Assembly (NCBI GenBank): GCA_963768215.1
Contig: CAVYHW010000075.1
Location: 1-63,989, forward strand
Source: an uncultured Gammaproteobacteria bacterium
Lineage (GTDB): Bacteria > Pseudomonadota > Gammaproteobacteria > SZUA-229
Direction of reading: 5' to 3'
DNA length: 63,989 nt
Positions 1 through 26,416 of this stretch are shown here, in pieces; position 1 is the stretch's first letter; the number at the start of each line of letters is the position of its first letter. The notes under the pieces were generated by a model. That model saw only the letters and a list, made by a program, of their open reading frames with translations, searched no databases and was not told the origin of the DNA. Made by a program: the position numbers and the translations under genes.

Positions 1-1263
1 ATCGCCTTAGGCAGCTGGTGGGCTATAACGAACTGGGCTGGGGCGGCGGTGGTTCCTGGGACCCGGTTGAGAATGCTTCATTTATGCCAGGGCCTGTTGG
101 TACAGCATTAATCCATTCGCTGGCAATGACGAAAAACGCGGCGTGTTTAAAAGCTGGACCGTGTCTCGTGGCCTATGACACTGGCTTTTTCACTTAGCCT
201 GCTTGGCACTTTTATTGTTCGTTCGCAATTTCCGTACACGCTTTTGCAACCGACCCCGCGCGGTGTGTTTATTCTTGCCTTCCTGGTCGTTGTTGTCGGT
301 GGTTCACTTGCTTTGAAATCTTGCGCTCTGCCACCGTAGTCAGTTACGGCCGTTTTCAGTGGTTCTCACGAATTTGGCATCGTTGTTAAATAACATTATT
401 TTCTTACCGCTGCAGCAGCGGTATTTGTTGGCACCATGTACCCTCTTGTTGTTGACGCTTTTGGCATAGGAAAGATTCTCCTGTTGGCCGGCCTTATTTT
501 TGACACCATGTTTGCGCTGATAGCTATTCCGCTTTCACTTCTGTGGGCATATTGGACCGATGGTGCGCTGGAAAGGTGATAGCTGGTCACGAATTGCTAA
601 AAAAGAGCTCTGACACCCTTATTTGTTGTTTCTACTGCTTGGTTTGCTGCTGCCTTTCTTGATTGAGGACCAATTAAACCTGACTACGGGACTAGGTCTC
701 GCCGCTGCATTGTGGATTGCTTTAACCACGCTCAGGGACCTGTTTTCACGTCTGTACAAACCTGCGCTTATCACTTTTCATGCCGGCATGATACGGTGCA
801 TTGGCGTAGCTGTTTTTATATCCGGGCCATAACGGTGACCATGAGCTACAGTGTAGAAAAAGATTTACGTGTAGTGCCGGGAAGCAGTTATAACATAGCA
901 GGGTTATGGATTTCCGTTTTCAGGGTACAAGAAAAGTAAAAGGTGATAACTATATAGCCGATGAGGCCTGTTATCGGAAGTCTGGTTGGGTAATGAAAAA
1001 TCAGGTGAACTGTTCCCGAAAAAAGAAACTATAGCGGTAAAAGCAGCCCGATGACAGACGCATCAATTGATAAAACTTTTTTCCGTGATTTATATGCGCC
1101 GACGGTGAAGAGCTGGAGAATGGCGCCTGGAGTATGCGGGTTTATTACAAACCGATGATTCGCTGGATCTACTTTTGGTGGCGTACTGGCAGTAAGTGAC
1201 CGTCGATATCGTCAATCAGTCAAACAGAAGCTAAACGAGAAGTTCGTCGTTTTGGCTGCCTGA
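1..1263 (+). pseudogene. Degraded mirror copy of the C-terminal two-thirds of ccmF
   Basis: Translated fragments reproduce CcmF peptides, for example LLLGLLLPFLIEDQLNLTTGLGLAAALWIALTTLRDLFSRLYK in ORF 623-832. No long ORF survives because of frequent indels. The mirrored stop TGA is at 1261-1263. Confidence 0.85.
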
Positions 1264-1302
1264 TTATTTATTGAATTTTTTAGCCTTTAGAAACTATCTG
1301 TA

Positions 1303-1500
1303 TGGAAAATAACCGCACCTTTACGTCGATTTATGCCGCTTATTTTGTTTGTGGCGCTGGTTGCGCTTCTGGCCTTTGGTTTGACGCTTAATCGACGACG
1401 GGCGCCTTCGCCATTTATCGATAAACCTGCGCCAGAGTTTGAACTTCCATTATTGTTTAAACAGGGAAGCTCTCCAAAGACTTAATGGGTCATGTGACCC
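1303..1500 (+). pseudogene. Degraded mirror copy of the ccmG 5' end
   Basis: atggaaaataacc... at 1303 mirrors the ccmG start at 1746. It has indels relative to the right arm. Confidence 0.8.
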
Positions 1501-1746
1501 GCGACAGGCAAAGCACCAGCTTGCCCAGACATTAACCAGGGTCACATGACCCATTAAGTCTTTTTTCGAAAAGCTTCCTTCTTTAAACAATAATGGAAGT
1601 TCAAACTCTGGCGCAGGTTTATCGATAAATGGCGAAGGAACCAGTCGTGGATTAAGCGTCAAACCGAAGGCCAGAAGCGCAACCAGCGCCACAAACAAAA
1701 TAAGCGGCATAAATCGACGTAAAGTAGAAGGTTGGTTATTTTCCAT
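1450..1746 (-). CDS. ccmG: CcmG/DsbE thiol:disulfide oxidoreductase, N-terminal fragment only. The sequence is authentic down to about 1501, and the last ~17 codons read into the inverted arm.
   Basis: It has an N-terminal membrane anchor and then VNVWASWCFACR (a WCxxC redox motif). It lies directly downstream of ccmF. The ORF tail after the CxxC is reverse-complement sequence from the foldback. Confidence 0.7.
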   Translation of the reverse strand: MENNQPSTLRRFMPLILFVALVALLAFGLTLNPRLVPSPFIDKPAPEFELPLLFKEGSFSKKDLMGHVTLVNVWASWCFACRGSHDPLSLWRASLFKQ

Positions 1747-1784
1747 ACAGATAGTTTCTAAAGGCTAAAAAATTCAATAAATAA

Positions 1785-3734
1785 TCATGCAGTCGAAACA
1801 GACAGCTTCTCGTTTAGCTTCTGTTTGACTGATTGACGATATCGACGGTCACTTACTGCCAGTACGCCACCAAAAGTCATCAGGATACAGCCCAGCCAGA
1901 TCCAGCGAATCATCGGTTTGTAATAAACCCGCATACTCCAGGCGCCATTCTCCAGCTCTTCACCCATGGCGCCATATAAATCACGGAAAAAAGTTTTATC
2001 AATTGATGCGTCTGTCATCGGGCTGCTTTTACCGCTATAAGTTCTTTTTTGCGGGAACAGTTCACCTGATTTTTCATTACCCGACCAGACTTCGATGACG
2101 GCCTCATCGGCTATATAGTTATCACCTTTTACTTTTCTTGTACCCTGAAAACGGAAATCATAACCTGCTATGTTATAACTGCTTCCCGGCACTACACGTA
2201 AATCTTTTTCTACACTGTAGCTCATGGTCACCGTTACGCCCGCAATAAAAACAGCGACACCAAAATGCGCCATTATCATGCCGGCATAAGAAAGTGATAA
2301 GCGCAGGTTTTTGTACAGACGTGAAAACAGGTCCCTGAGCGTGGTTAAAGCAATCCACAATGCAGCGGCAAGACCTAGTCCCGTAGTCAGGTTTAATTGG
2401 TCCTCAATCAAGAAAGGCAGCAACAAACCAAGCAGTAGAGAAACAACAAATAAGGGTGTCGCTACTTTAGCAATTCGTGACCAGCTATCACCTTTCCAGC
2501 GCACCATCGGTCCAATACCCAGCAGAAGCGAAAGCGGAATAGCTATCAGTGCAAACATGGTATCAAAATAGGGTCGGCCAACAGAAATCTTTCCTATGCC
2601 AAAAGCGTCAACGACCAAGGGGTACATGGTGCCAACAAATACCGCTGCTGCAGCGGTAAGAAAAATAATGTTATTTAACAACAATGCCGATTCACGAGAG
2701 AACCACTGAAAACGACCGTAACTGACTACGGTGGCAGAGCGCCAGGCATACAAAGCAAGTGAACCACCGACAACAACGACCAGGAAGGCAAGAATAAACA
2801 CGCCACGAGCGGGGTCGGTTGCAAAAGCGTGTACGGAAACCAGTACGCCAGAACGAACAATAAAAGTGCCAAGCAGGCTAAGTGAAAAAGCCAGTATGGC
2901 CAGTAACACGGTCCAGCTTTTAAACACGCCGCGTTTTTCAGTACTTGCCAGCGAATGGATTAATGCTGTACCAACCAGCCATGGCATAAATGAAGCATTC
3001 TCAACCGGGTCCCAGAACCACCAGCCACCCCAGCCCAGTTCGTTATAAGCCCACCAGCTGCCTAAGGCGATGCCCATGGTTAAAAAACTCCAGGCAATCG
3101 TGGTCCATGGCCTTGACCAGCGCGCCCAGGTTGCATCCAGCTTGCCACCAAGTAGAGCGGCCACAGCAAAAGCAAAAGCCACTGAAAACCCAACATATCC
3201 CATGTACAAAAGAGGTGGATGTATTATCAGCCCCGGATCCTGCAATAAAGGATTTAATTCGCTGCCATCAAGCGGTGTCGGGAAAATGCGTTCAAAAGGG
3301 TTTGAGGTAAACAGCATAAAAGCCAGGAAACCAGTGCTAATCATGCCCATTACCGCCAGTACGCGCGCCATTAAAATCTCTGGCAGGTTGCGACTGTAAA
3401 CTGCGACGGCAATAGTCCATATAGAAAGTATCAGCGACCATAATAATAAAGAACCTTCGTGTGAACCCCAAACGCCGGAAATACGATACATTAATGGCTG
3501 CACAAGGTTTGAGTGCTGTGATACATATAAAACAGAAAAATCGTACACAATGAAAGCATGGGTCAGAGCTGCATATGCCAGACCAACAAATAAAAGCTGA
3601 GCCAGGGCGGCGGGCCGCGCCAGGGAAATTAATGTGGCATCATTTTTTGCTGCGCCAATTAAAGGTACGACGCTTTGTACGATAGCAATGGCAAAAGCAA
3701 TTATTAATGCAAAATGTCCAAGTTCAGGAATCAT
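1785..3734 (-). CDS. ccmF: Cytochrome c-type biogenesis heme lyase CcmF
   Basis: 649 aa polytopic membrane protein with the WWD heme-handling motif ([18 protein letters not shown]). It sits between ccmE and ccmG. Confidence 0.97.
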   Translation of the reverse strand: MIPELGHFALIIAFAIAIVQSVVPLIGAAKNDATLISLARPAALAQLLFVGLAYAALTHAFIVYDFSVLYVSQHSNLVQPLMYRISGVWGSHEGSLLLWSLILSIWTIAVAVYSRNLPEILMARVLAVMGMISTGFLAFMLFTSNPFERIFPTPLDGSELNPLLQDPGLIIHPPLLYMGYVGFSVAFAFAVAALLGGKLDATWARWSRPWTTIAWSFLTMGIALGSWWAYNELGWGGWWFWDPVENASFMPWLVGTALIHSLASTEKRGVFKSWTVLLAILAFSLSLLGTFIVRSGVLVSVHAFATDPARGVFILAFLVVVVGGSLALYAWRSATVVSYGRFQWFSRESALLLNNIIFLTAAAAVFVGTMYPLVVDAFGIGKISVGRPYFDTMFALIAIPLSLLLGIGPMVRWKGDSWSRIAKVATPLFVVSLLLGLLLPFLIEDQLNLTTGLGLAAALWIALTTLRDLFSRLYKNLRLSLSYAGMIMAHFGVAVFIAGVTVTMSYSVEKDLRVVPGSSYNIAGYDFRFQGTRKVKGDNYIADEAVIEVWSGNEKSGELFPQKRTYSGKSSPMTDASIDKTFFRDLYGAMGEELENGAWSMRVYYKPMIRWIWLGCILMTFGGVLAVSDRRYRQSVKQKLNEKLSVSTA

Positions 3735-3785
3735 AATCGTTCTCTAGTAAGTTGTTATATCAACTTCGGGTCAATAAATTATCCT

Positions 3786-4268
3786 TTAGATTTTTCCACT
3801 CGATTTTTCAGCGGCCGATTTTGTAGCAGCTTTCTGTTTGGCTGCCTGCTCTGCCGCTTCCAGTGCGTCCGCAACTTCTGGCGGCATATAATTTTCATCG
3901 TGTTTGGCCAGTACTTCGTCAGCGATAAAGCTGCCATTTGCCTGCAGGCTGCCCATGGCAACTATGCCCTGACCTTCACGAAATAGGTCCGGCAAAATAC
4001 CGGTGTATTCTACCGTCATGGTTTCGGCGTTGTCCGTTAAATCAAACTGTACTGTCAGGCTGTCAACTTCACGTGATACGCTGCCATCAACCACCAGCCC
4101 GCCAACACGAAATGAATGTGTTTTAGGTGCTTCGCCCGCTTTTACCTGTGTCGGGGTATAAAAATACAACAGGTTTTCTTCAAATGCAGTTAAACCTAAC
4201 ACCGTTGCCACAGCTACACCGAATACAACAGCAAAAATCAATAATTTTCGACGACTTCTTTTATTCAT
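3786..4268 (-). CDS. ccmE: Heme chaperone CcmE
   Basis: 160 aa with an N-terminal anchor and the LAKHDENYMPPEV heme-binding His motif. Operon position supports the call. Confidence 0.95.
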   Translation of the reverse strand: MNKRSRRKLLIFAVVFGVAVATVLGLTAFEENLLYFYTPTQVKAGEAPKTHSFRVGGLVVDGSVSREVDSLTVQFDLTDNAETMTVEYTGILPDLFREGQGIVAMGSLQANGSFIADEVLAKHDENYMPPEVADALEAAEQAAKQKAATKSAAEKSSGKI

Positions 4269-4305
4269 ACCTGTTTATATACTCATTACTTAAGTTCTGT
4301 AGTTT

Positions 4306-4491
4306 TTAGCCCTTTTTTCTTGCTAAATCTATATTTTCACGCTGTATGTTGCGCTTAATACGCGCAATAATTTTTTTACGTTGCAAAATAGGAGAAATAA
4401 TATTTGCAACAACAACAGCAAACGTTAGTCCGTAGGATGTCCACACAAAAAACGCGTAACCACCCATATTAAAAAATTCTGACCAGTTCAT
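4306..4491 (-). CDS. ccmD: Heme exporter protein CcmD
   Basis: 61 aa single-TM peptide between ccmC and ccmE. Confidence 0.8.
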   Translation of the reverse strand: MNWSEFFNMGGYAFFVWTSYGLTFAVVVANIISPILQRKKIIARIKRNIQRENIDLARKKG

Positions 4492-4507
4492 GGTTATACC
4501 TGCCTTA

Positions 4508-5245
4508 TTAAAGCTTCTCTATCAATTCTCTTACCCAGCGGCGGTTTCGATCACGATATAAAGCTTCATTTCGTGTCCTGACCAGTACCACAGCCGCATA
4601 AAATAACTTAAATGCCAGCGCCATCAACAACAGTGGAATTAGCATATCAATATGCATGGATGGTTTGTCAAATTTTGTTACCGTAGCGCCCTGATGCAGG
4701 GTATTCCACCATTCAACAGAATAATGAATAATCGGGATATTAACCACGCCTACGATGGCCAGCAAACCACTGGCTTTGTCTGCACTGCGCTGGTCTTCAA
4801 TTGCTGATTGCAGCGCCATATAACCCAGGTATAAGAACAGCAAAATAAGCTCTGAGGTTAAACGCGCATCCCATACCCAGTATGCGCCCCACATGGGTTT
4901 GCCCCATAATGAGCCTGTTACTAATGCGAGAAAAGCAAATGACGCGCCAATAGGGGCGCTGGCGGCGGCAACCATATCAGCCAGTCGAATTTGCCAGATA
5001 ATGCCAATACCGGAGGTCACCGCCATTACCATGTAAACAAACATCGACATCCAGGCAGCAGGCACGTGAATAAAAATTATTCGATAACTTTCACCCTGCT
5101 GATAATCTGTCGGTGCCACGAACAGGCCTAAATATAACCCATACACCCCAATTAACAAGGCGCCAATGGCGAACCAGTTAATTAATGGTGCTGACATTCT
5201 GTAAAAATGTTTAGGTGAAGAAAATCGTTGTATCCAGTTCCACAT
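4508..5245 (-). CDS. ccmC: Heme exporter protein CcmC
   Basis: 245 aa multi-TM protein with a Trp-rich motif (WGKPMWGAYWVWDARLT). Confidence 0.95.
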   Translation of the reverse strand: MWNWIQRFSSPKHFYRMSAPLINWFAIGALLIGVYGLYLGLFVAPTDYQQGESYRIIFIHVPAAWMSMFVYMVMAVTSGIGIIWQIRLADMVAAASAPIGASFAFLALVTGSLWGKPMWGAYWVWDARLTSELILLFLYLGYMALQSAIEDQRSADKASGLLAIVGVVNIPIIHYSVEWWNTLHQGATVTKFDKPSMHIDMLIPLLLMALAFKLFYAAVVLVRTRNEALYRDRNRRWVRELIEKL

Positions 5246-5322
5246 AATAAAATTCTTTTAACTCAATCTATTGTGCTGCCTATTGTGCAGCCATCTATAT
5301 TGCAGTGCTTATTGTGGCGCTC

Positions 5323-5994
5323 TTATCGAGAAGCCGTAATGCGTAAAGCGACCGAGGTCGCTAATGGCGCCAGTGAGAGGGACAATGCTAACACAGCCCC
5401 CAAAAACAACAACTGGCCTGTAACAGGCAGGCCATCCATTGCCACATCAACCGCATTTGCACCAAAAATAAGTATTGGAATGTACAACGGTAGAATAATT
5501 AATGACAACAAAACGCCGCCACGGTTCACTGCTACTGTTAAAGATACTCCAATGGCTCCAATCAGGCTTAATACCGGCGTACCAAGAAGCAGGCTATAAA
5601 TCAGTACGTTGACGGCATCCGTGGGCAGGGACATAAATATCCCCAGTAGTGGCGCAATAATCACCAAAGGTAAACCGGTCAACAACCAGTGTGCGGTCAC
5701 TTTGGCCAATACCAGTATCACTAGTGGATTCGGGCTTAACATTAGCTGGTCTAACGAACCATCATCATAATCCTGCTTGAACAAACGGTCCAGTGATAAT
5801 AAGACGGCCAGTAAGGCCGATACCCAGATCACACCTGGTGCCATAGTTTGCAAAGCATCAGTGGTCGGGGTTACCGCCAGTGGAAATAAAGTCACCACTA
5901 AAACAAAAAATATCAAAGGGTTAGCTAATTCATGACGGTTACGTAATGCCAGCCGTAAATCGCGAATTAATAAGTGATAATAGGCTTTTAGCAT
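5323..5994 (-). CDS. ccmB: Heme exporter permease CcmB
   Basis: 223 aa hydrophobic protein lying between ccmA and ccmC. Confidence 0.9.
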   Translation of the reverse strand: MLKAYYHLLIRDLRLALRNRHELANPLIFFVLVVTLFPLAVTPTTDALQTMAPGVIWVSALLAVLLSLDRLFKQDYDDGSLDQLMLSPNPLVILVLAKVTAHWLLTGLPLVIIAPLLGIFMSLPTDAVNVLIYSLLLGTPVLSLIGAIGVSLTVAVNRGGVLLSLIILPLYIPILIFGANAVDVAMDGLPVTGQLLFLGAVLALSLSLAPLATSVALRITASR

Positions 5995-5999
5995 CAGTG

Positions 6000-6638
6000 C
6001 TAGTCCTTTGGACTCTGGTGAATAGTGCGGCCTAGCTGGACCGAGCGCATATCACAGTCCAGTTGCATACCATGATGCGTGGTAAAAATAACGCTGCCGC
6101 CAGCCTGCCTATGCCCCAGTATCATCGATTCCATTAAATCGACACCCTGTACATCCAGCGCAGTTAACGGCTCATCCAGTATCCACAGCTTTGCATGTGC
6201 CAGTTCGACAAAAGCCAGTAAAATCCTGCGACGCTGCCCCGAAGATAAGGCCTTTCCCGGCACATCCTCGTAACTTGCCAGGCCAACTTTTTCTAATGCA
6301 GTTTCTATCACCGGATTAGCCAGGGTAAGTGAACGCGTATCAAGCAGCGCTCGGACATTTTCCAGAACGGTTAAATCAGCCTTAATGCAAGGCAGATGAC
6401 CGATATAAACCATTTTTTCATAGTAATCTTCCCGGTTAGAACTAATCGACTTGCCCTGCCACATGACCTGGCCCGATTCAGGCAGGCGTAAGCCACAGAG
6501 AATTCGCAACAGGCTGGTTTTGCCGCTGCCATTATGGCCTTCAATTTGCAAAACCTCTGCCTCGGACACGGAAAAGCTTAAATCGCTGAACAGCAGGCGA
6601 TCATCACGTACGCATTCTAATGACTGGACTTCAAACAT
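6000..6638 (-). CDS. ccmA: Cytochrome c biogenesis ABC ATPase CcmA
   Basis: Walker A GHNGSGKTS, signature LSSGQRRR and Walker B LWILDEP. Confidence 0.93.
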   Translation of the reverse strand: MFEVQSLECVRDDRLLFSDLSFSVSEAEVLQIEGHNGSGKTSLLRILCGLRLPESGQVMWQGKSISSNREDYYEKMVYIGHLPCIKADLTVLENVRALLDTRSLTLANPVIETALEKVGLASYEDVPGKALSSGQRRRILLAFVELAHAKLWILDEPLTALDVQGVDLMESMILGHRQAGGSVIFTTHHGMQLDCDMRSVQLGRTIHQSPKD

Positions 6639-10566: not shown

Positions 10567-10792
10567 ACAGTTAACCCTTTTTCTGCTTTTTATTATTCAC
10601 CAGGAATAGTACAAGCAAAGCTAAACGGTACAAATATGGTGAAATGCTATTCAATGGGATTCCATAAATTTAGCTAGCTTACTGTCAGGTGGTTTATTGA
10701 AGAACAGGGGGCGAGACGATAACATCAAAAAGATGATATTGCCTCGCCCCCTGTTTTTGTTGCTAAGCAGATATTCAGCTCATTTTACAATA

Positions 10793-13700
10793 CTACCATC
10801 CGCTGCTAGTGATTCTGTGACATCCGCTATTGCCACAATTCTTGTTTTGTTCTACCGTACCGCTGCTTCCGCCAATGTGTCTGCTTTCACTTCTGAAATC
10901 ATTTGCATGACAGGCAGCGCAGTAGGGTGCGTACTGGGAATAGGGCCACGCAAAATTACTGTTTATGCTATTGCCGTGGCAGGCGCTACATCCCGGGTCA
11001 TTTCTATGATCACCCGGGTAGTCACCGTTTGAGTCATGGCTGAAGATGTCAGGTGCCCAGCGTTCTGTTGAATGACACTCGTCACACTGTACATTGGTGC
11101 TTAGGTGACCTGATGGCTTGGAGGTCGCGCCGCCTGTATTGCTGTGACAGCTATCGCAGTTCCCGGCACTATTGGCATCGTGGGTCCAGGTGCCACCAAC
11201 GAAGGTTGCGGTTGTATGGCAGAAATGACAATCCAGGTCGGTTGCAACATGGTCGTTGTCCTTACCGGTCGCTGTCACCCCATGACAGGACTCACAATTG
11301 TTAGTGATGCCTGTGTGATCAAACGTCGCAGGTATAAAGCTTGAGGTGTTGTGACAAATACCACAATCCTGGTTGGTTACAACATGAGTGTCTGTTTTGC
11401 CTGTTGCGAAACCGGCGCCATGACACGACGAGCAGTTATTCACGATACCTGCATGATCAAAAGTTGCCGGTAAAAAGCCTGTGGTCTGATGGCAGTTACT
11501 GCAATCTTTGTTGGTTGGCACGTGGTTAGGTGTAGGGGCTTTGCCTGTGGCGATAATGCCATCATGGCACGTTGCACAGCTATTCACGATGCCCTGGTGA
11601 TCGAACCTGGCGCCAGCAAACGCAGTGGTGTTATGGCACACAGAGCAATCCTCGTTGGTAGGAGCATGGGTTGGGTTGGTCTTGGCATCTTTGCCGGTTG
11701 CCGCAATACCATTGTGGCATGATTCACAGTTATTCACGATGCCGGTATGATCAAACACTGCGGTAGCAAAGGTGCCGGGTACGTGACAGAGGCCGCAATC
11801 CTCGTTTGTTACAACATGACCATTATTTTTACCGGTTGCATTGACACCGTTATGACAGTTATCACACCTTTGGCTCAACACTTCCGGGCTGGTATGGTCG
11901 ACAAATGCATCGGCGAAATTAACGGTGTTATGACATACACCACAGTCCTCATTTGTGTTTTGATGAGTTGGCGTATTTGTTGCTCCTCTGGCTCCAACCG
12001 CAACATTGTTCACACTGCCGTCATGGCAGGAGGCGCAATTAGCGGTGATGCCCGTGTGGGCAAAAATTGAAGGGGTGAAAGAAGTATTTGTGTGGCAATC
12101 GCCACAATCCTGGTTCGTCGGCAGATGGCTTGCTGCCTTGACAACATTAGGATTACCGTTAGCCGTCGGCAGGAATGGACTGCTATGGCAGCCTTCACAA
12201 CCCTGGGTAAGACCGGGGTGTACATTACTCATAAAGATTGATGAAGCAAAGCCGCCAATACTTGTGTCATTGTGACACTGGCTGCACTCAGTCTGTGCTG
12301 GGATGTGATTAACCGCTTTGGGCGTAGCGATACCTGTATTATGGCAGGATGCGCAGTCATTAGGGTCTATGCCCAGATGGTTAAATGTTATACCCGCAAA
12401 AGTGACAAAATTGTTGGTGGCGTGACATGACGAACAATCCAGGTTGGTCGGTAGATGGTTCAGAGATTTTCCTTTGCTGATATTACCGTCATGGCATGAT
12501 GCACAATTACTGGTATTTATGCCCACGTGGTTAAATGCTGCACCGGCAAAGGTTGTGGTGGTGTGGCAATCGGCACAATCCTGGTTGTCCGGATTGGTTG
12601 GTATGTGATTTTCAAGTTTACCCACACTGATCACATTGTTGTGACATGAATCGCAGCTACCCACAAAAGAAGGGCCAGTATGGCCAAAGGTGCCAGTGCT
12701 AAAGGTACCTGGAGTATGGCATTCACCACAATCCTCATCGGTCGGCATGTGCTCGTAGATCCCAAGGATGGTTAGAGGTTTGCCGCTTGCCGAACCAGTG
12801 CCGTTAGCAACATGACAGTTATCGCAGCGTTGTGCCAGTACATCAGGGTCGCTGTGGTCGATGATGAATGCAGGAATAAAACTTTCGGTGTTATGACACG
12901 ATCCACAATCGGCGCTGGTTGTTGGGTGGTTAACCGCAGATGACTTGGTGGGCGCGTTAATACTGGTGCTATCATTGTGGCATGATTCACACGGTTGTAC
13001 CGTTGGATCAACCAGGCTGTGGTTGAAAATACCACCGGGTAGTTTGAAAGTCACGATGCTATGGCAGACGTCGCAATCGACGTTTGTTGACGTTGTGTCC
13101 GGATGGCCGACAGTTTGACCCGATGCCGAACCAGTACCATCAGCAGCATGACAGGAATCACAGGTTATGCCCGGACCCACAACAGAAGGGCCAGTGTGGT
13201 CCGGGTAGGCATCCTTAAAAGTCACAGTGGTATGACAGTAGCCGCATTCATGGTCGGTGTCCGGGTGGGTGCCGGGTGGAGTGTCAGCGATTGTGGGCGT
13301 CATGCCAGTGGCCACGGTACCGTTATGGCATCCTGAACATAATCTGGAAAGATTCGTGTGATCGAAGCTGCCGTCAGCGTTTAGTTCCAGAAAGCTGGTG
13401 GTATTGTGGCAGTCATCGCAAGCGGCGTCTGTTGGCTGATGAAATATGGATTTACCGACGACCTTTATTCCGTCATGGCATTCATCGCAATTCCCAAAAA
13501 CTTCCTGATGATCAATAAAAGAGGGAGATGCAAAATCAAAAGTTGAATGGCAGGACTGACATAGATTTGAGGTAGCCAGGTGGGTAGCTATTTTAGTACC
13601 AACCACCACGTAATCACCACTGTGACAATTAGTACAATTAGATGAAAAATTTTGATGTATAACCGGCCCCGTAGGCTCACCAGCCTGGACAATGGCAACA

Positions 13701-14089
13701 GTACGCTGACTAGTAACACCGCTGGCGCTGACCACCAGCTGTATTCTGTATGTCCCTTTCACATCAGCAATAAAACTGGGGTTCACGGTTGTTGAATTTT
13801 GTAATTGAGCGTTGCTGCCATGAGGTATAGAGGTAAAGGACCATTCATAGGCCAGTGCCTCATTTGTCGAGGCGCTGGAGTAACTGCCATCCAGAATTGC
13901 AGTCTCACCCACGCCTAATGTAATAATCGGGCCAGGTTGGACGTTCAATAATAGTGTCGAAGACGGTGTTACACCTGTAGATGTTCCTGAGTCTCCACCT
14001 GAGCCCCCGCTTGAGCATCCGACGGTAATTGCAGTTAGTACGAATATAAAAAAGTAACTAATTAACGCGCGTTGCGGCCCTTGTTTCAT
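10793..14089 (-). CDS. Giant multiheme c-type cytochrome lipoprotein with 36 CXXCH and 1 CX4CH
   Basis: The ORF track gives 10793-14104 from a TTG start. An ATG at 14089 (MKQGPQR...) has a GAGG 9 nt upstream. The lipobox is LTAITVG/CSSGG. An Ig/PKD-like domain is followed by ~18 tandem diheme modules. Confidence 0.9.
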   Translation of the reverse strand: MKQGPQRALISYFFIFVLTAITVGCSSGGSGGDSGTSTGVTPSSTLLLNVQPGPIITLGVGETAILDGSYSSASTNEALAYEWSFTSIPHGSNAQLQNSTTVNPSFIADVKGTYRIQLVVSASGVTSQRTVAIVQAGEPTGPVIHQNFSSNCTNCHSGDYVVVGTKIATHLATSNLCQSCHSTFDFASPSFIDHQEVFGNCDECHDGIKVVGKSIFHQPTDAACDDCHNTTSFLELNADGSFDHTNLSRLCSGCHNGTVATGMTPTIADTPPGTHPDTDHECGYCHTTVTFKDAYPDHTGPSVVGPGITCDSCHAADGTGSASGQTVGHPDTTSTNVDCDVCHSIVTFKLPGGIFNHSLVDPTVQPCESCHNDSTSINAPTKSSAVNHPTTSADCGSCHNTESFIPAFIIDHSDPDVLAQRCDNCHVANGTGSASGKPLTILGIYEHMPTDEDCGECHTPGTFSTGTFGHTGPSFVGSCDSCHNNVISVGKLENHIPTNPDNQDCADCHTTTTFAGAAFNHVGINTSNCASCHDGNISKGKSLNHLPTNLDCSSCHATNNFVTFAGITFNHLGIDPNDCASCHNTGIATPKAVNHIPAQTECSQCHNDTSIGGFASSIFMSNVHPGLTQGCEGCHSSPFLPTANGNPNVVKAASHLPTNQDCGDCHTNTSFTPSIFAHTGITANCASCHDGSVNNVAVGARGATNTPTHQNTNEDCGVCHNTVNFADAFVDHTSPEVLSQRCDNCHNGVNATGKNNGHVVTNEDCGLCHVPGTFATAVFDHTGIVNNCESCHNGIAATGKDAKTNPTHAPTNEDCSVCHNTTAFAGARFDHQGIVNSCATCHDGIIATGKAPTPNHVPTNKDCSNCHQTTGFLPATFDHAGIVNNCSSCHGAGFATGKTDTHVVTNQDCGICHNTSSFIPATFDHTGITNNCESCHGVTATGKDNDHVATDLDCHFCHTTATFVGGTWTHDANSAGNCDSCHSNTGGATSKPSGHLSTNVQCDECHSTERWAPDIFSHDSNGDYPGDHRNDPGCSACHGNSINSNFAWPYSQYAPYCAACHANDFRSESRHIGGSSGTVEQNKNCGNSGCHRITSSGW

Positions 14090-14610
14090 GATGGTTAGCC
14101 TCAAACATTAAGTTTTAAAAACTATTGTTTTCTTATTTGATTTTTGTGGTGCTTAAGAAGTGTAGAATTGCCAGACAGGTGTCAATACCAGCAAGTTAAG
14201 CACTATATATTTGAGGATCATTTGATTTTGTAGGTTAGAAATAATTCGGACCCAACCTGTTCTGCAGGCATCTAGTGCGAATAGTATCGCGGCTACAGAC
14301 CTAACTTGCTGAACATTGCCGAAAGTATAGTCCGTGATAAATAGTTTTGGTAAATCTGACGAAAAAAAAGCATAAAAGTTGAAATTTCAACTTTTACTGT
14401 GCTTTGCTGATGTTGCCTGCATATGAAACTTGCTGAGACCTTTTTTGTGGCCGCTTCTGTGACCTGATGTGACATCAGGGTGAGCATAAAATAACGGTTG
14501 TGAATAAATGAATTTCAAAATAATAGTCTAAATTTCAACATTTTCCCTGTGTTGCTGGAGTTACTTGCATTCGGTGCCTGCATCTGGAAAAACCAGATTT
14601 ATTTTCTCAT

Positions 14611-17331
14611 TTAATGCGCTTCATCCCAGTTATTGCCTGTACCAATATCCACCACCAGCGGCACCTTAAGTGTTGCTGCCTGTTCCATTTCCATCCTTAA
14701 CAGGGTTGCCAGCGCTTCAACATCTTTTTCCAGCACTTCAGCCACTAATTCATCATGCACCTGCATCACTACTTTTGCATCAAGCTGGCTGGTGGACAGG
14801 GCTCGGTCAACAGCAATCATCGCGCGTTTAATAATATCGGCAGCGGTTCCCTGCATCGGGGCATTAATGGCTGTTCGCTCAGCATACTGGCGCCGTTGCC
14901 CATTCTTTGAATTGATTTCCGGCAGATACAGGCGGCGACCAAACACGGTTTCGACATAACCCTGATCATGGGCCAGTTCACGTGTTTTTTCCATATACAT
15001 TTTCACGCCAGGGTAACGCGCGAAATACACATCGATGTATTCCTGCGCCTCGTAACGCCCGATATTCAGCTGCTTTGCCAGGCCAAAAGCAGACATGCCA
15101 TAAATCAGCCCAAAATTAATGGCTTTTGCCGCCCGGCGCTGATCAGCTTCCACATCATCCAGCGCCACACCAAATACTTCAGCGGCCGTTGCGCGATGTA
15201 CGTCAATACCATCAGCAAAGGCTTTGAGCAGGCTTTCATCTTCCGATAGATGCGCCATGATACGCAGCTCAACCTGTGAATAATCCGCCGCCAGCATTTT
15301 GTAACCTTTGGGGGCAATAAAAGCCTGCCGAATGCGCCGGCCTTCCTCACTGCGTATCGGGATGTTCTGTAAATTCGGGTCGGTCGAAGACAGTCGACCG
15401 GTGGCGGCAACTGTCTGATTATAGGAGGTATGTACACGACCGGTATTTTCATTGACCTGCAACGGCAGTTTGTCCGTGTAGGTCGATTTCAGCTTACTGA
15501 CACTGCGGTGCTCCAGTAGAATTTTTGGCAGGGCGTGGTCAATGGCCAGTTCCTGCAACACGTCTTCTGCGGTTGAGTATTGACCTGTTTTGGTCTTTTT
15601 CTTTGACGGTATTTTGAGTTTTTCAAACAGAATGGCGCTTAATTGTTTTGGCGAGGCAAGATTAAACGTTTCACCGGCTTCATCATAAGCCTGCTGTTCG
15701 AGTTCTTTCATGCGTTCAGCTAGCAGTTTGCTCTGTTTTTGTAGCATCGGCACATCAACCAGTACGCCTTTGCGTTCAATGTTGAGCAGCACATTAAGTA
15801 ACGGTAATTCGATTTCCTGGTAGACACTTTTAAGTTTTGGCTCTTTATCCAGTTCGGCACTTAACTTGTGATGGATTTGCAGCGTGATATCAGCGTCTTC
15901 TGCTGCATAAGGCCCGGCCTGCTCAAGAGCGATCAGATTGAAAGTCAGTTGTTTAGCGCCTTTGCCGGCAATATCTTCAAAATGAATGGTGGTATGGCCT
16001 AATAAACGCAGCGCCAGATCGTCCATGCCATGACGTTTGGTAGAGTCCAGTACGTAAGATTCCAGCATCGAATCCTGTGCAATCCCCCTAAGCGCTATGC
16101 CATGATTGGCCAGCACATGCGCGTCATATTTCAGGTTCTGTCCAATTTTCTTTTTGTTTTCATCTTCCAGTAGCGGCTTTATCGCGCCCAGTACATCCCG
16201 CTCACTCAACTGCTCAGGCGCATCCAGGTAGTCGTGTGCGAATGGCACGTAAGCTGCCTCACCTGCTTCGATGGCAAATGACACACCAACGGCCCTGGCT
16301 TTCATATAGTCCAGGCTGGTGGTTTCGGTATCAAAGGCAAATTGCTCAGCATTGCTGAGTCTATTTAGCCAGTTTTCCAGGGATTGTTTATCCAGTACGG
16401 TTTGGTAACGGGTTTCGGGCATGGCGTCGTGTGAATGGTTGCCAGCTGTCTGAATTCCCGCTGCTTCGCTACCATCGATAGATAAATTAGCCAGCCAGGA
16501 TTTGAATTCCAGATCGGTATAAATCTGTCTGAGTTTATCGATCTGTGGTGGCCGCATGACCAGGTTGGTAATGTCCTGTTCAAGTTCAACATCGCATTTA
16601 ATCGTGGCGAGTTTGCGAGACAATAACAACTGGTCCAGGTTCTCTCGCAGGTATTCTCCTACCTTGCCTTTAATTTCATCTGCATGTGCTATCAGGCTGT
16701 CCACTGTTTCATATTGTTGTAACCATTTTGCTGCTGTTTTTGGGCCTACCTTGGGCACGCCCGGGATGTTATCTGAGGTGTCACCCACCAAAGCCAGGTA
16801 ATCAATAATCGCACTGGCCGGCACATCAAATTTCTGCTTCACACCGGCTTCATCCATCAGCACATTGTTCATGGTGTTGATTAAGGAGATATGTGGGTTT
16901 ACCAGTTGCGCCAGGTCTTTATCGCCGGTAGAAATCAGCACGTCTATTTTCTGATTAGTAGCCTGTCTGGCGTAGGTGCCGATGACGTCGTCCGCCTCAA
17001 CATCCGGTACAATAATTATTGGGTAGCCCAGCGCTTCAACCAGCTCATGTAAAGGGGCGATTTGAACTCTTAAGTCATCAGGCATCGGCGGGCGGTTCGC
17101 CTTGTAATCAGGGTACATGTCATTGCGAAAGGTTTTACCTTTGGCATCAAATACCACCGCTATGTGCTCAGGTTTATAGTCTGCAACCAGTTTATTGAGC
17201 ATATTAATTACCCCGTAAACCGCGCCTGTTGGCTGGCCTTTACTGTTAGTCAAAGGTGGCAGGGCATGGAAAGCGCGAAACAGGTAGGAAGAACCATCTA
17301 CCAGAACGAGTGGCGGTTTTTTTTCAGTCAT
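14611..17331 (-). CDS. polA: DNA polymerase I
   Basis: 906 aa with a 5'-nuclease N-terminus, a 3'-5' exonuclease domain and Pol A motifs (ADYSQVELRIMAH, QVHDELV). Confidence 0.97.
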   Translation of the reverse strand: MTEKKPPLVLVDGSSYLFRAFHALPPLTNSKGQPTGAVYGVINMLNKLVADYKPEHIAVVFDAKGKTFRNDMYPDYKANRPPMPDDLRVQIAPLHELVEALGYPIIIVPDVEADDVIGTYARQATNQKIDVLISTGDKDLAQLVNPHISLINTMNNVLMDEAGVKQKFDVPASAIIDYLALVGDTSDNIPGVPKVGPKTAAKWLQQYETVDSLIAHADEIKGKVGEYLRENLDQLLLSRKLATIKCDVELEQDITNLVMRPPQIDKLRQIYTDLEFKSWLANLSIDGSEAAGIQTAGNHSHDAMPETRYQTVLDKQSLENWLNRLSNAEQFAFDTETTSLDYMKARAVGVSFAIEAGEAAYVPFAHDYLDAPEQLSERDVLGAIKPLLEDENKKKIGQNLKYDAHVLANHGIALRGIAQDSMLESYVLDSTKRHGMDDLALRLLGHTTIHFEDIAGKGAKQLTFNLIALEQAGPYAAEDADITLQIHHKLSAELDKEPKLKSVYQEIELPLLNVLLNIERKGVLVDVPMLQKQSKLLAERMKELEQQAYDEAGETFNLASPKQLSAILFEKLKIPSKKKTKTGQYSTAEDVLQELAIDHALPKILLEHRSVSKLKSTYTDKLPLQVNENTGRVHTSYNQTVAATGRLSSTDPNLQNIPIRSEEGRRIRQAFIAPKGYKMLAADYSQVELRIMAHLSEDESLLKAFADGIDVHRATAAEVFGVALDDVEADQRRAAKAINFGLIYGMSAFGLAKQLNIGRYEAQEYIDVYFARYPGVKMYMEKTRELAHDQGYVETVFGRRLYLPEINSKNGQRRQYAERTAINAPMQGTAADIIKRAMIAVDRALSTSQLDAKVVMQVHDELVAEVLEKDVEALATLLRMEMEQAATLKVPLVVDIGTGNNWDEAH

Positions 17332-23695: not shown

Positions 23696-26416
23696 ATGAC
23701 CGCTATGACTACAGCAACCGCCAATATAAAAAACCTTTATGCTAATAACCCGTGGAAAGGACGCTTAATACTAACCGTTTTAATAATTGTCATTATTTTA
23801 ACTATTATACGTGTGACGCTTTCTCCGGCAATTGTCTACAGCACAACATCCTGGTTAAAGAAGCAGGGCATCGAGTCTGCTATTGAGGAGATAAAAATTA
23901 ATTTACACGATGGCAGTATCTCGCTGGTAAATGCAAAAGGTTTTAAAGACAATGACCCTTTGTTTAATATTGGACTGATTGACATACACTGGCGTTGGGC
24001 GCCATTATCGGAAAAACAGGTAGTGGTTACAAAAGTTGTTGTTGATAAAATCGACGTTGACATAAAACAGTATACAGACGAAATTATTATTAGCGGTGTG
24101 CATATATCGCTAGGCCAGGCGTCTTCAGATGAAGCCAAACAAACTGAAGATACAAAAACCAGACCATGGGCTATTTCACTTGGTGAGCTTGTCTTAACTA
24201 ATTTTAATGTCTGTTATTTACAGCACACATCAGCGAAAGCCAACGCAACAAAAGATAATAAATTTGTTGATTATTGCGTGCAGCTGGAGGAGATGACCTG
24301 GGGTGGAACCATAAGCTACGCAACTGATGCCGGGCTTGTCGCATCGGGTGACCTGCCATTGTCCTCCAGCGGAAGTTTTGCACTCAATGGTTTTAATATT
24401 ATTGATAACAAAATCAATAAAAAATTACTTGTTTCAGAATCAAATACGCTTAGCAATGTAGTTGTGTCAGGACTGAATAAAATTCATATTGACGAGCTTG
24501 TAATGAATGGTCTTTCGGCTTTGCAACGTGAGGACAGTCAGCATCATGATGCGGTTCGTTTTCAGCAGATAGCTATTTCCGATATAAAGCTAACAACGCT
24601 TAATTCCCTTTCTGTTAAAAGTATTAAGGTAAGTAAACCGGGGTTATATATAGTCAGGCAAAACCAGTCAGACTGGGAGTATCAACAATGGGTGCCTGCA
24701 TCTGGCAAAGCTAATCAAAAGACTGATACTGACAGCAATAACACGAAGAAAGATAGCGAAGCTTTATTTAAATTTACTGTTGATAATATCAATATCGATA
24801 ATTCAGATATGTGTTACCTGGAGCAGGACAGTTCTCTATATTATTGCTTTGTGCTTGATGAGTTTAACTGGAAAGGCGCTGTTAAATTTAGCACGGAGCC
24901 ATCAGGTAGCGGTGGCCCTGCCCTGTCTGTCAGCGGCGACCTCAAGCTGTTGCACCCTAATGTGCATAACCATACACTGAAGCGAAATCTGCTTGATGTT
25001 AAATCCATAGCTGTGGCCAATCTAAATATTGCTGATATAGAGAATATTACTCTGAGTAAACTAAACGTGAAGGGTTTAAGTGCTTTACAGCGTAGTGAAA
25101 ATAAAAGTGATAACACACTGTCATTCGATGAGCTTGATATTAAAGATATAAAACATTCCACTAACAAAATTGCCATCAATACAATCAAGCTGGATGGGCT
25201 GGCCGATAAAGTTTCAAAAAACAAAGACGGAACATGGGAGCATGATAAATGGTCAACCGCTAACGATGGGTCTGTGGTTTCTAACGAAACAACAAAACGG
25301 CAGCCATCAAAAGCACAGCAAGCACCAGAAAAAAAGCCTTTTGTTATTTCTTTAAATAAGTTAAATATTAACTCTGATAAAGAGATTGCATTTACAGACA
25401 ATAGTACCGAACCGGGGATGACAGTGGGACTTCAGAGCCTGTCTTTTGATATAAGCGAGCTTCATTCAGATAAACCAGAAACAGACAGTCCTTTTAAACT
25501 GCACGCAAAAACCAGGGAACATAGCACTATTGATATTGAAGGTACTATAAAACCTTTTGCTGAAAAAGTGTCGATGGATGCGAAGGGGAAACTTAAAGGT
25601 CTGGACCTGCGCGTTGCCTCGCCTGCTGTCAAAAAGGCCATTGGCCATATAATTAAAACCGGACAATTAGATGCAGATCTGGATCTGAAAGCTGTTGAAG
25701 GTAAACTTAACAGTAATATCGCACTGTCGCTTTATCATTTTCAAATAAAATCAGTCAGTAAAGATGATGCGAAAAGACTGGACGAGAAGTTTGGCATGCC
25801 TTTAAACCAGACGCTGGTATTACTGCGCAATAAAGACGACAGTATCCATCTCGATATTCCGATCACTGGCGATGTAAATAATCCTAACTTCGATCCTATG
25901 GATGCAATTGTCAAAGCCACCTCAAAAGCAGCGACCTTTAGTTTAATTACTTTTTATACACCTTATGGGCTGATATATGCCGGTGGAAATTTAGCATTGA
26001 ATCTTGCCACTGCGCTTAACTTTGATCCGATTGAATTTGCTTCCGGTTCTTCAGAGTTGCAAACCAGCGGCAAAGAGAAGTTAGATGGACTATCAAAATT
26101 ATTAATCGAAAAGCCACAGGTGCACCTGACCCTGTGTGGCATTACCAGCAAGCAGGATGTGCTGGCTCTTTATCCTGAAGCTAAACCTGAAGCTAAGGCC
26201 AAAAATGAAAACGGAAGTGAAAAAGGGAAAAACAGGAATGCCCAGCTAACAAAAGAACAGGTTTTAAAGCTGAATCAACTGGCCAGCGAGCGGCAAATAA
26301 ACAGCAAGAATTATCTGGTTAATAAACACAGCATTGATCACAGCCGCCTGATTTTATGTGAGCCTGAATATAAAGAAGATAATGAGGGTGTTTCCGGGGT
26401 GGAGATAAATATCTAA
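23696..26416 (+). CDS. Large N-terminally anchored envelope protein (DUF748/AsmA-like) with a degenerate OmpA-like C-terminus
   Basis: 906 aa with one N-terminal TM segment and a long beta-rich repetitive body. The C-terminus reads IEFASGSSELQTSGKEKLDGLSKLL. The family call is tentative. Confidence 0.4.
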   Translation: MTAMTTATANIKNLYANNPWKGRLILTVLIIVIILTIIRVTLSPAIVYSTTSWLKKQGIESAIEEIKINLHDGSISLVNAKGFKDNDPLFNIGLIDIHWRWAPLSEKQVVVTKVVVDKIDVDIKQYTDEIIISGVHISLGQASSDEAKQTEDTKTRPWAISLGELVLTNFNVCYLQHTSAKANATKDNKFVDYCVQLEEMTWGGTISYATDAGLVASGDLPLSSSGSFALNGFNIIDNKINKKLLVSESNTLSNVVVSGLNKIHIDELVMNGLSALQREDSQHHDAVRFQQIAISDIKLTTLNSLSVKSIKVSKPGLYIVRQNQSDWEYQQWVPASGKANQKTDTDSNNTKKDSEALFKFTVDNINIDNSDMCYLEQDSSLYYCFVLDEFNWKGAVKFSTEPSGSGGPALSVSGDLKLLHPNVHNHTLKRNLLDVKSIAVANLNIADIENITLSKLNVKGLSALQRSENKSDNTLSFDELDIKDIKHSTNKIAINTIKLDGLADKVSKNKDGTWEHDKWSTANDGSVVSNETTKRQPSKAQQAPEKKPFVISLNKLNINSDKEIAFTDNSTEPGMTVGLQSLSFDISELHSDKPETDSPFKLHAKTREHSTIDIEGTIKPFAEKVSMDAKGKLKGLDLRVASPAVKKAIGHIIKTGQLDADLDLKAVEGKLNSNIALSLYHFQIKSVSKDDAKRLDEKFGMPLNQTLVLLRNKDDSIHLDIPITGDVNNPNFDPMDAIVKATSKAATFSLITFYTPYGLIYAGGNLALNLATALNFDPIEFASGSSELQTSGKEKLDGLSKLLIEKPQVHLTLCGITSKQDVLALYPEAKPEAKAKNENGSEKGKNRNAQLTKEQVLKLNQLASERQINSKNYLVNKHSIDHSRLILCEPEYKEDNEGVSGVEINI

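Follow-up and report, generated by a model that had tools for sequence, protein, structure and literature searches.

A predicted 37-heme lipoprotein cytochrome from an uncultured gammaproteobacterium and its proposed place in PCC3-type porin-cytochrome conduits

What would a bacterium do with a single polypeptide built to carry 37 hemes, and how might such a protein be connected to the rest of the cell when its gene lies far from the porin and cytochrome genes with which it would be expected to work? This question is raised by a 63,989-nucleotide contig of an uncultured Gammaproteobacteria bacterium (CAVYHW010000075.1; "the window" refers here to this whole stretch of DNA), the minus strand of which encodes a 1098-residue multiheme lipoprotein downstream of polA. 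The assignment favoured here, with a likelihood somewhat better than even, is that this protein is the distal, cell-surface, lipid-tethered cytochrome of a porin-cytochrome conduit of the PCC3 type. The class to which it belongs is widespread, is known bioinformatically and has never been experimentally tested, and the protein is a new, well-defined member of it. What is new is the fixed 37-heme architecture with one conserved distal histidine per heme, the front end composed of a lipobox and a PKD domain, and the separation of the gene from PCC3 in the lineage of the window.

Heme motifs, ligands and reading frame

The protein contains 36 CXXCH motifs and one terminal CGNSGCH (CX4CH), while shuffles of its own residues yielded a mean of 0.35 CXXCH and a maximum of 3. 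It has 75 cysteines, 77 histidines and 4 methionines, and Cys25, the lipobox residue, is the sole cysteine outside the heme motifs. Each heme corresponds to 29.7 amino acids over the whole chain and to 25.9 within the heme region, and the composition is rich in threonine (11.4%), glycine (9.3%), serine (9.0%) and alanine (7.6%) and also in asparagine. The calculated mass is 111.8 kDa for the apoprotein and would rise to about 134.6 kDa with all 37 hemes bound. A first-pass annotation of this DNA had listed the same motifs and had placed nearly all of the other cysteines within them, as is indeed the case; its heme count of 36 gives way to a conserved count of 37. In the cytochrome c3 family CX4CH is a standard type of heme site, and some orthologs carry CX6CH where the window protein has its terminal CX4CH.

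The same annotation had described about 18 equal diheme modules. The diheme build was borne out, and the actual arrangement is an irregular first pair followed by 16 regular modules and a three-heme cap (Table 1). The regular modules are 45-60 amino acids long, carry two hemes each and share a mean pairwise identity of 41%, with an A half of the form xTxxFxxxxFDHxGIxxNCxSCH and a B half of the form DGxxAxGKxxxHxPTNxDCxxCH. The cap, which is not part of the repeat, contains the motifs CSACH, CAACH and CGNSGCH, with distal histidines at positions 1018, 1028 and 1071, and its signature ...CAACHxxDF...HIGG...GTVEQNKNC(x4-6)CH is conserved in orthologs as well as in relatives with 70-80 hemes. At the N-terminus, the signal peptide ends in a lipobox with Cys25, as in bacterial lipoproteins, and this cysteine is kept in at least 95% of 117 homologs, which mostly read V/I-A/S-G-C; the lipoprotein signal noticed earlier is thus confirmed. 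The Ig/PKD-like domain proposed to follow it was likewise recovered, with a match to Pfam PF22352 (K319L-like PKD) at residues 62-133 (E 2.7e-7, 31 bits against a cutoff of 27) and AlphaFold2 (AF2) predicted local distance difference test (pLDDT) values of 85-94 over residues 50-140.

To judge the conservation of the potential heme ligands, the 117 full-length homologs were aligned. None of the 37 motif histidines varies among them, exactly 37 more reach a conservation of 0.97 or above, and the other three (H90, H280, H955) are not conserved. All cysteines, including that of the lipobox, are conserved at 0.95 or above, and no methionine exceeds 0.81. The bis-histidine stoichiometry claimed by the first-pass annotation is upheld by these figures, which fit 37 bis-His low-spin hemes putatively attached at the 37 motifs. 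Since each heme has a conserved histidine available as sixth ligand, no open coordination (catalytic) site is expected, and the ligand stoichiometry fits a pure electron conductor or store.

The open reading frame (ORF) at 10793-14089 is intact and begins with ATG. The block GTTTGAGGCTxACCATCATGA, running from the Shine-Dalgarno site to the start codon, is kept in the closest relative (locus L003), which argues for this ATG as the start over a TTG at 14104; the latter is also unlikely in that it overlaps the GAGG site. Across the DNA that encodes the repeats, Tandem Repeats Finder detected no array, in agreement with the earlier statement that the repeats have diverged at the DNA level and are not a collapsed assembly repeat. 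When orthologs at 54-56% identity are compared, 12-13 of the 16 modules find their best match at the same position (identity 0.60 vs 0.38). As the modules are positional orthologs, the array is old and fixed and not recently expanding, and this, together with the lack of a tandem array, rules out a collapsed or expanding DNA repeat. Recent horizontal transfer of the gene was also set aside, given that its GC content at third codon positions (GC3, 0.476) falls inside the range of its neighbours (0.37-0.54); its raised overall GC is due to the second codon position and hence reflects the amino-acid composition.

The family and its relation to PCC3 clusters

Among the best 120 protein-database matches listed, more than 100 homologs have lengths of 1,050-1,160 amino acids and identities of 54-72%, all of them from metagenomes or metagenome-assembled genomes (MAGs) and named "hypothetical" or "cytochrome c3 family". 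CXXCH motifs number 36 in 84 of these matches and 35 in 34, with the same cysteines present. The best 77 loci in a one-genome-per-species collection are also all from MAGs, most of them labelled Gammaproteobacteria (Thiotrichaceae, Candidatus Thiodiazotropha, Sedimenticolaceae, Thiohalomonadales, Ectothiorhodospiraceae, Candidatus Azotimanducaceae), with a few bins labelled Nitrospirota or Leptospirillia. Heme numbers of about 32, 38 or 70-80 are found in more distant relatives, of which some possess the C-terminal cap as well. A search with the last 114 residues returned 625 representatives of 100-3,592 amino acids at E <=1e-3; the query included half a regular module, and the number describes a wider modular superfamily that extends beyond cap-bearing proteins. 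The orphan status implied by the first-pass annotation is not sustained, with more than 100 homologs found and orthologs located inside or beside PCC3-type clusters.

As a separate observation, seven loci (L027, L033, L041, L044, L046, L054 and L058) encode proteins of about 1,880-2,110 amino acids with 70-80 CXXCH motifs. Candidatus Thiodiazotropha and Sedimenticolaceae are among the source MAGs, several of the proteins have the same cap, and their array is roughly doubled.

Pfam matches comprised Cytochrome_C7 (18 stretches), Cytochrom_c3_2, MtrC/MtrF II-IV (69 bits) and Paired_CXXCH_1. The nanowire_3heme domain model of NCBIfam (TIGR04257) was matched in 9 stretches, with 84.2 bits against a cutoff of 40, and was the sole model passed, as DmsE/MtrA (TIGR03508; 117.5 bits against 192.2), OmcA/MtrC (TIGR03507; 94.9 bits against 209.3, the protein having 37 hemes and not ten in two pentaheme domains), GSU2203 and HmcA all remained below cutoff. 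A literature search gave no match on 36- or 37-heme cytochromes or on a Thiodiazotropha multiheme cytochrome.

The closest published counterpart is found in PCC3, which was defined bioinformatically as a porin, an extracellular multiheme cytochrome (MHC) with a median of 34 hemes, a periplasmic MHC with a median of 21 and an inner-membrane protein (IMP) (He et al. 2017, PMC5566968). [quoted passage not shown] Compared by published description, the window protein resembles the extracellular MHC in its very many motifs (37), its spacing of about 26-30 amino acids per heme, its T/S/A/G richness and its heme-bearing internal repeats (16 diheme modules, or ~23-24 amino acids of repeat per heme). 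Its lipobox, its PKD domain and its fixed count of 37 hemes are not described in He et al. 2017.

The genomic context of relatives, counted as genes within 10 kb in 47 orthologous loci of the 36-heme type, also ties the family to such clusters. No neighbouring gene is universal across the loci of relatives. Maturation genes (ccmG, ccmI or CycH-Ig) occur in 15 of the 47 loci and parts of a PCC3-type cluster in 9, the latter consisting of an IMP of ~280-310 amino acids, a 21-heme cytochrome, a 7-15-heme cytochrome and an outer-membrane barrel of ~685 amino acids that ends in an aromatic residue, often flanked by an FAD/4Fe-4S oxidoreductase and an ankyrin-like protein. Every IMP of these clusters has two WX3HX13H motifs and SGxxG, a combination published as the hallmark of the PCC3 IMP, a protein of about 300 amino acids (He et al. 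2017, PMC5566968). In L083 and L079 the order is IMP, 21-heme MHC, 7-heme MHC, barrel and then the 36-heme lipoprotein, with 31 bp and 932 bp, respectively, between the last two genes; in other loci nrdAB is inserted between them. In these clusters, with their 21-heme cytochrome and IMP, the orthologs thus follow the barrel gene, as expected of the extracellular MHC of PCC3; these gammaproteobacterial clusters differ from the published ones in the additional 7-15-heme cytochrome gene between the 21-heme and barrel genes. The barrel family is also similar to the cytochrome family in size, identity spread and sources.

The window differs from published PCC3 in that its cytochrome gene is unlinked from PCC3 genes: tblastn with PCC3 components found none in the 64 kb, so that the barrel, the ~21-heme cytochrome and the IMP are not joined with it in one cluster there. 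The first-pass annotation had already remarked that no porin or periplasmic multiheme partner is adjacent, and this stands. The closest relative, whose cytochrome is 73% identical, has the order polA, MHC, engB, c4, ccmA without a permease, and its MAG (GCA_022340645.1) contains a full PCC3 cluster on JAJDNP010000008 and the 36-heme gene on JAJDNP010000073. In the former contig (L082) nrdAB comes immediately after the barrel gene, leaving empty the slot that the 36-heme gene fills in relatives. The empty slot and the presence of the gene at the polA-engB locus therefore point to relocation of a single gene in this lineage. The same unlinked co-occurrence of the 36-heme gene and PCC3 was found in a second MAG (ENJ87 locus tags), and, by analogy with the MAG of the closest relative, a PCC3 cluster is to be expected in another part of the genome of the window organism.

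A smaller cytochrome was also noted near the 36-heme gene in L016, L029, L049 and L062 and in PCC3 clusters. It has 7-11 hemes, ~200-300 amino acids and a Sec signal peptide, lies sometimes beside ccmG, and is built of the same diheme modules, at 30-43% identity to those of the window protein.

Structure, cellular placement and competing explanations

The first-pass annotation had predicted a very long linear heme chain, a claim that structure prediction did not confirm. The full-length AF2 model (36 sequences) reached a pLDDT of 40 overall and of about 35 in the heme region, with only the PKD domain confident, and a 286-residue fragment with 12 hemes (118 sequences) reached a pLDDT of 63 and a predicted template modelling score of 0.31. 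With this fragment, Foldseek returned nothing significant from the PDB, the top entry being the dodecaheme GSU1996 (3ov0) at E = 4. A PDB sequence search with the whole protein found no significant structure (best MtrC, 9eov, E 0.0016), and one with the module profile gave only marginal matches (E 0.006; OmcS E 0.017; c7). Chains such as those of MtrA, OmcS and GSU1996 advance by roughly 0.8-1 nm per heme, and on this basis a chain of 37 hemes would be ~30 nm long. We infer a linear geometry because 25.9 amino acids per heme leave little beyond heme packing and because published AF2 models of PCC3 cytochromes are long and mostly linear (PMC9900912).

Several known systems offer partial parallels. 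Like MtrC and OmcA of Shewanella, which form the distal end of a porin-cytochrome conduit, the protein is an N-terminal lipoprotein with multiple hemes that are all predicted to be bis-His ligated. The sequence resemblance is weak (E 0.0016 to 9eov; 69 bits to Pfam MtrC/MtrF II-IV), and the protein differs in having 37 hemes instead of 10, in lacking the staggered-cross four-domain build and in the absence of mtrAB genes. With the Geobacter "nanowire" cytochromes typified by GSU1996 it shares the construction of a single polypeptide from repeated small heme domains, although its repeat is a ~48-residue diheme unit and not a triheme c7, and the match to 3ov0 is not significant. GSU1996 has His-Met hemes, whereas the window protein has no conserved methionine ligand, is predicted to be lipid-anchored and carries three times as many hemes. 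The role expected of it, long-range extracellular electron conduction along a heme chain, is that of OmcS, OmcE and OmcZ; these are polymers of 4-8-heme subunits, whereas the window protein is one polypeptide with no significant similarity to them (OmcS E 0.017).

In the arrangement proposed here, electrons would pass between the quinone pool and a di-heme-b-type inner-membrane protein with two WX3HX13H motifs, between the latter and the 21-heme periplasmic cytochrome, and from there by way of the ~685-residue outer-membrane barrel and its 7-15-heme cytochrome to the 37-heme protein. Tethered by its lipid, its Gly/Ser linker and its PKD domain, this protein would extend the conduit by an estimated ~30 nm towards insoluble or cellular redox partners. 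In the lineage of the window, its gene would have moved from the PCC3 cluster to the polA-engB-ccm locus, where it would be transcribed on its own. The lipobox suggests an outer-membrane or surface location; that the protein is exposed at the surface and docks physically to PCC3, which way the electrons flow and what the external partner is are likewise matters of inference.

A number of observations weigh against this assignment. The default of the Lol pathway is the periplasmic face of the outer membrane, and no surface-export signal is readable in the protein. No confident heme-wire model was obtained from AF2, and no solved structure is significantly similar. The window, which is only a part of the genome, holds no PCC3 genes, and of the 32 family loci, whatever their heme count, that extend for at least 8 kb on each side of the gene, 26 have no PCC3 part nearby. 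PCC3 itself has been described as functionally unverified (10.1101/2025.02.27.639646), and proteomes of Sideroxydans ES-1 did not show its extracellular cytochrome (PMC11429942). An unlikely alternative is that the protein never reaches the surface and acts as a periplasmic wire or capacitor at the inner leaflet of the outer membrane, bridging inner-membrane oxidoreductases and the outer membrane or buffering electrons. The serine or glycine after the lipobox cysteine predicts just such default Lol sorting, the vicinity contains no genes for type II secretion or of the Slam type, the gene is often near cytochrome-maturation rather than export genes, and hemes that are all bis-His ligated would suit storage as well as conduction. 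Against this placement stand the length of a 37-heme chain, which, judging from known heme spacing, would exceed the width of the periplasm, and the PKD domain, since PKD domains are typical of surface proteins. Moreover, the gene, where it follows the barrel gene, occupies the same place as the published "extracellular MHC", and PCC3 clusters already hold a 21-heme cytochrome proposed to span the periplasm (PMC9900912).

It appears decidedly doubtful that the protein is a free-standing outer-membrane or extracellular cytochrome independent of PCC3, serving another conduit or released into the matrix, for example in metal reduction or detoxification or as an electron sink. The gene does appear monocistronic, with a 521-nt gap upstream and a strong hairpin downstream, it is unlinked from PCC3 in most loci, and relatives of its C-terminal region range from about 100 to 3,592 amino acids, suggesting reuse of the modules in many contexts; yet several lineages have it close beside the PCC3 barrel gene, and the genome of the closest relative contains both it and PCC3. 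A catalytic role, such as that of a reductase of a soluble nitrogen or sulfur compound, is highly improbable. Some multiheme families are enzymes, and weak sub-threshold matches to NrfH and HmcA were seen, but every heme has its conserved sixth-ligand histidine, the named enzyme families all score far under cutoff, and a Pfam scan revealed no non-heme catalytic domain. Still more remote is the notion that the ORF is an assembly artefact or a decaying repeat gene: a fold-back artefact does occur at the other end of the contig, but the cytochrome ORF is intact, its homologs share its length and the same 37 motifs, and its positionally orthologous modules, its DNA free of tandem repeats and its GC3 within the range of the neighbours all speak for a genuine gene.

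Neighbourhood of the gene and wider meaning

The features of the gene and of its surroundings are collected in Table 1. Upstream, across a 521-nt intergenic region, lies polA (14611-17331, minus strand). Past the hairpin that follows the stop codon, Pfam matches identify an SLC13/CitMHS permease, engB, a cytochrome c4 gene and ccmA, ccmB, ccmC, ccmE and ccmF. The first-pass annotation had placed the c4 and ccm genes upstream and had considered the anion permease the only co-directional neighbour; with the gene on the minus strand, both are downstream, and polA and the ccm genes are co-directional too. As a possible partner, the permease was discarded, being absent from the syntenic locus L003 and located behind the strong hairpin. 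The rest of the window is occupied by housekeeping genes (plsB, uvrD, ubiB/E/J, hslUV, argS, priA, pst), and Rfam and tRNA scans of it gave no match.

Table 1. Coordinates of the cytochrome gene, its encoded domains and associated features in the window.
Feature	Position	Strand	Details and evidence
Complete coding sequence, 37-heme lipoprotein cytochrome	10793..14089	minus	1098 aa + stop; ORF list, motif count, homologs
Shine-Dalgarno GAGG	14099..14102	minus	9 nt 5' of ATG
Signal peptide and lipobox ITVG/C (Cys25), residues 1-25, then SSGG	14015..14089	minus	sequence; Cys conservation
Gly/Ser/Thr-rich tether, residues 26-50	13940..14014	minus	conservation 0.21; AF2 pLDDT <50
PKD/Ig-like beta domain, residues 51-140	13670..13939	minus	Pfam PF22352; AF2 beta strands, pLDDT 79-94
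Irregular first heme pair (hemes 1-2), residues 141-181	13547..13669	minus	per-heme listing
16 regular diheme modules (hemes 3-34), residues 182-1006	11072..13546	minus	module alignment
Non-repeat C-terminal cap (hemes 35-37), residues 1007-1098	10796..11071	minus	per-heme listing, alignment
GC-rich terminator-like hairpin	10703..10755	minus	right after stop codon; RNA fold -43.7 kcal/mol, z = -8.6 vs shuffles
ccmA, ccmB, ccmC, ccmE, ccmF (System I heme attachment)	1785..6638	minus	4-9 kb downstream of cytochrome gene; Pfam
Inverted repeat GTGCTTAA-N39-TTAAGCAC	14149..14203	minus	60-115 nt before start codon; L003 comparison

In the comparison with L003, the inverted repeat falls within the best-conserved block of an otherwise diverged intergenic region, and it could be a candidate operator or a stem in the 5' untranslated region. 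An 8-mer enrichment analysis of the upstream regions of 44 orthologs revealed no convincing shared operator. The same intergenic region contains a perfect 20-bp palindrome, AAAGTTGAAATTTCAACTTT, at 14375-14394, followed by a T-run; it is not conserved in L003 and could be a weak terminator or a binding site.

Three further stretches of the window were noted in passing. At 1-3050, the first ~1,500 bases are a degraded reverse-complement copy of about 1540-3050, a region comprising the 3' portion of ccmF and the 5' portion of ccmG/dsbE; the copy is 94-100% identical, with indels and frameshifts, and its pivot near 1520 cuts the ccmG ORF. The contig end appears to be a fold-back chimera, an artefact of assembly or of the reads. 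At 32467-35332 on the minus strand, two ORFs of 461 and 557 amino acids overlap by about 190 nt and show no family match other than a faint one to a TolB propeller; they are possibly one frameshifted gene. At 23696-26416 on the plus strand, a 906-residue DUF748 protein is encoded beside plsB in a stretch of lower GC (about 0.40).

The prediction of giant PCC3-type multiheme cytochromes dates from 2017, and as late as 2025 they were described as functionally unverified. For one orthologous group among them, a definition is now available (lipobox, PKD domain, 16 diheme modules and three-heme cap), in which 37 hemes and 37 conserved distal histidines are constant over more than 100 lineages, mostly of uncultured Gammaproteobacteria. 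The protein is also a clean target for heterologous expression and structural work. The window and its relatives also illustrate that such a cytochrome gene can sit far from its presumed porin-cytochrome partners, and screens for extracellular electron transfer that rely on gene neighbourhoods would therefore miss it.

Returning to the assignment of the protein to a PCC3 conduit, it is probable that sediment bacteria use this family together with the PCC3 complex to pass electrons to or from the outside of the cell. If it acts as a wire at the surface, the protein has a bearing on the means by which sediment bacteria of the sulfur and iron cycles gain access to electron partners, whether solid or cellular. 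A bolder and rather improbable extension is that it forms a fixed-length, single-polypeptide nanowire of ~30 nm, in which the conserved 37-heme array would serve as a molecular ruler, allowing uncultured sediment Gammaproteobacteria, many of them of sulfur-oxidizing lineages, to exchange electrons with minerals, or with other cells (cable bacteria, for example), over a distance. Were this the case, the gene would mark a lifestyle of electron exchange over distance, even where it is unlinked from porin-cytochrome clusters.

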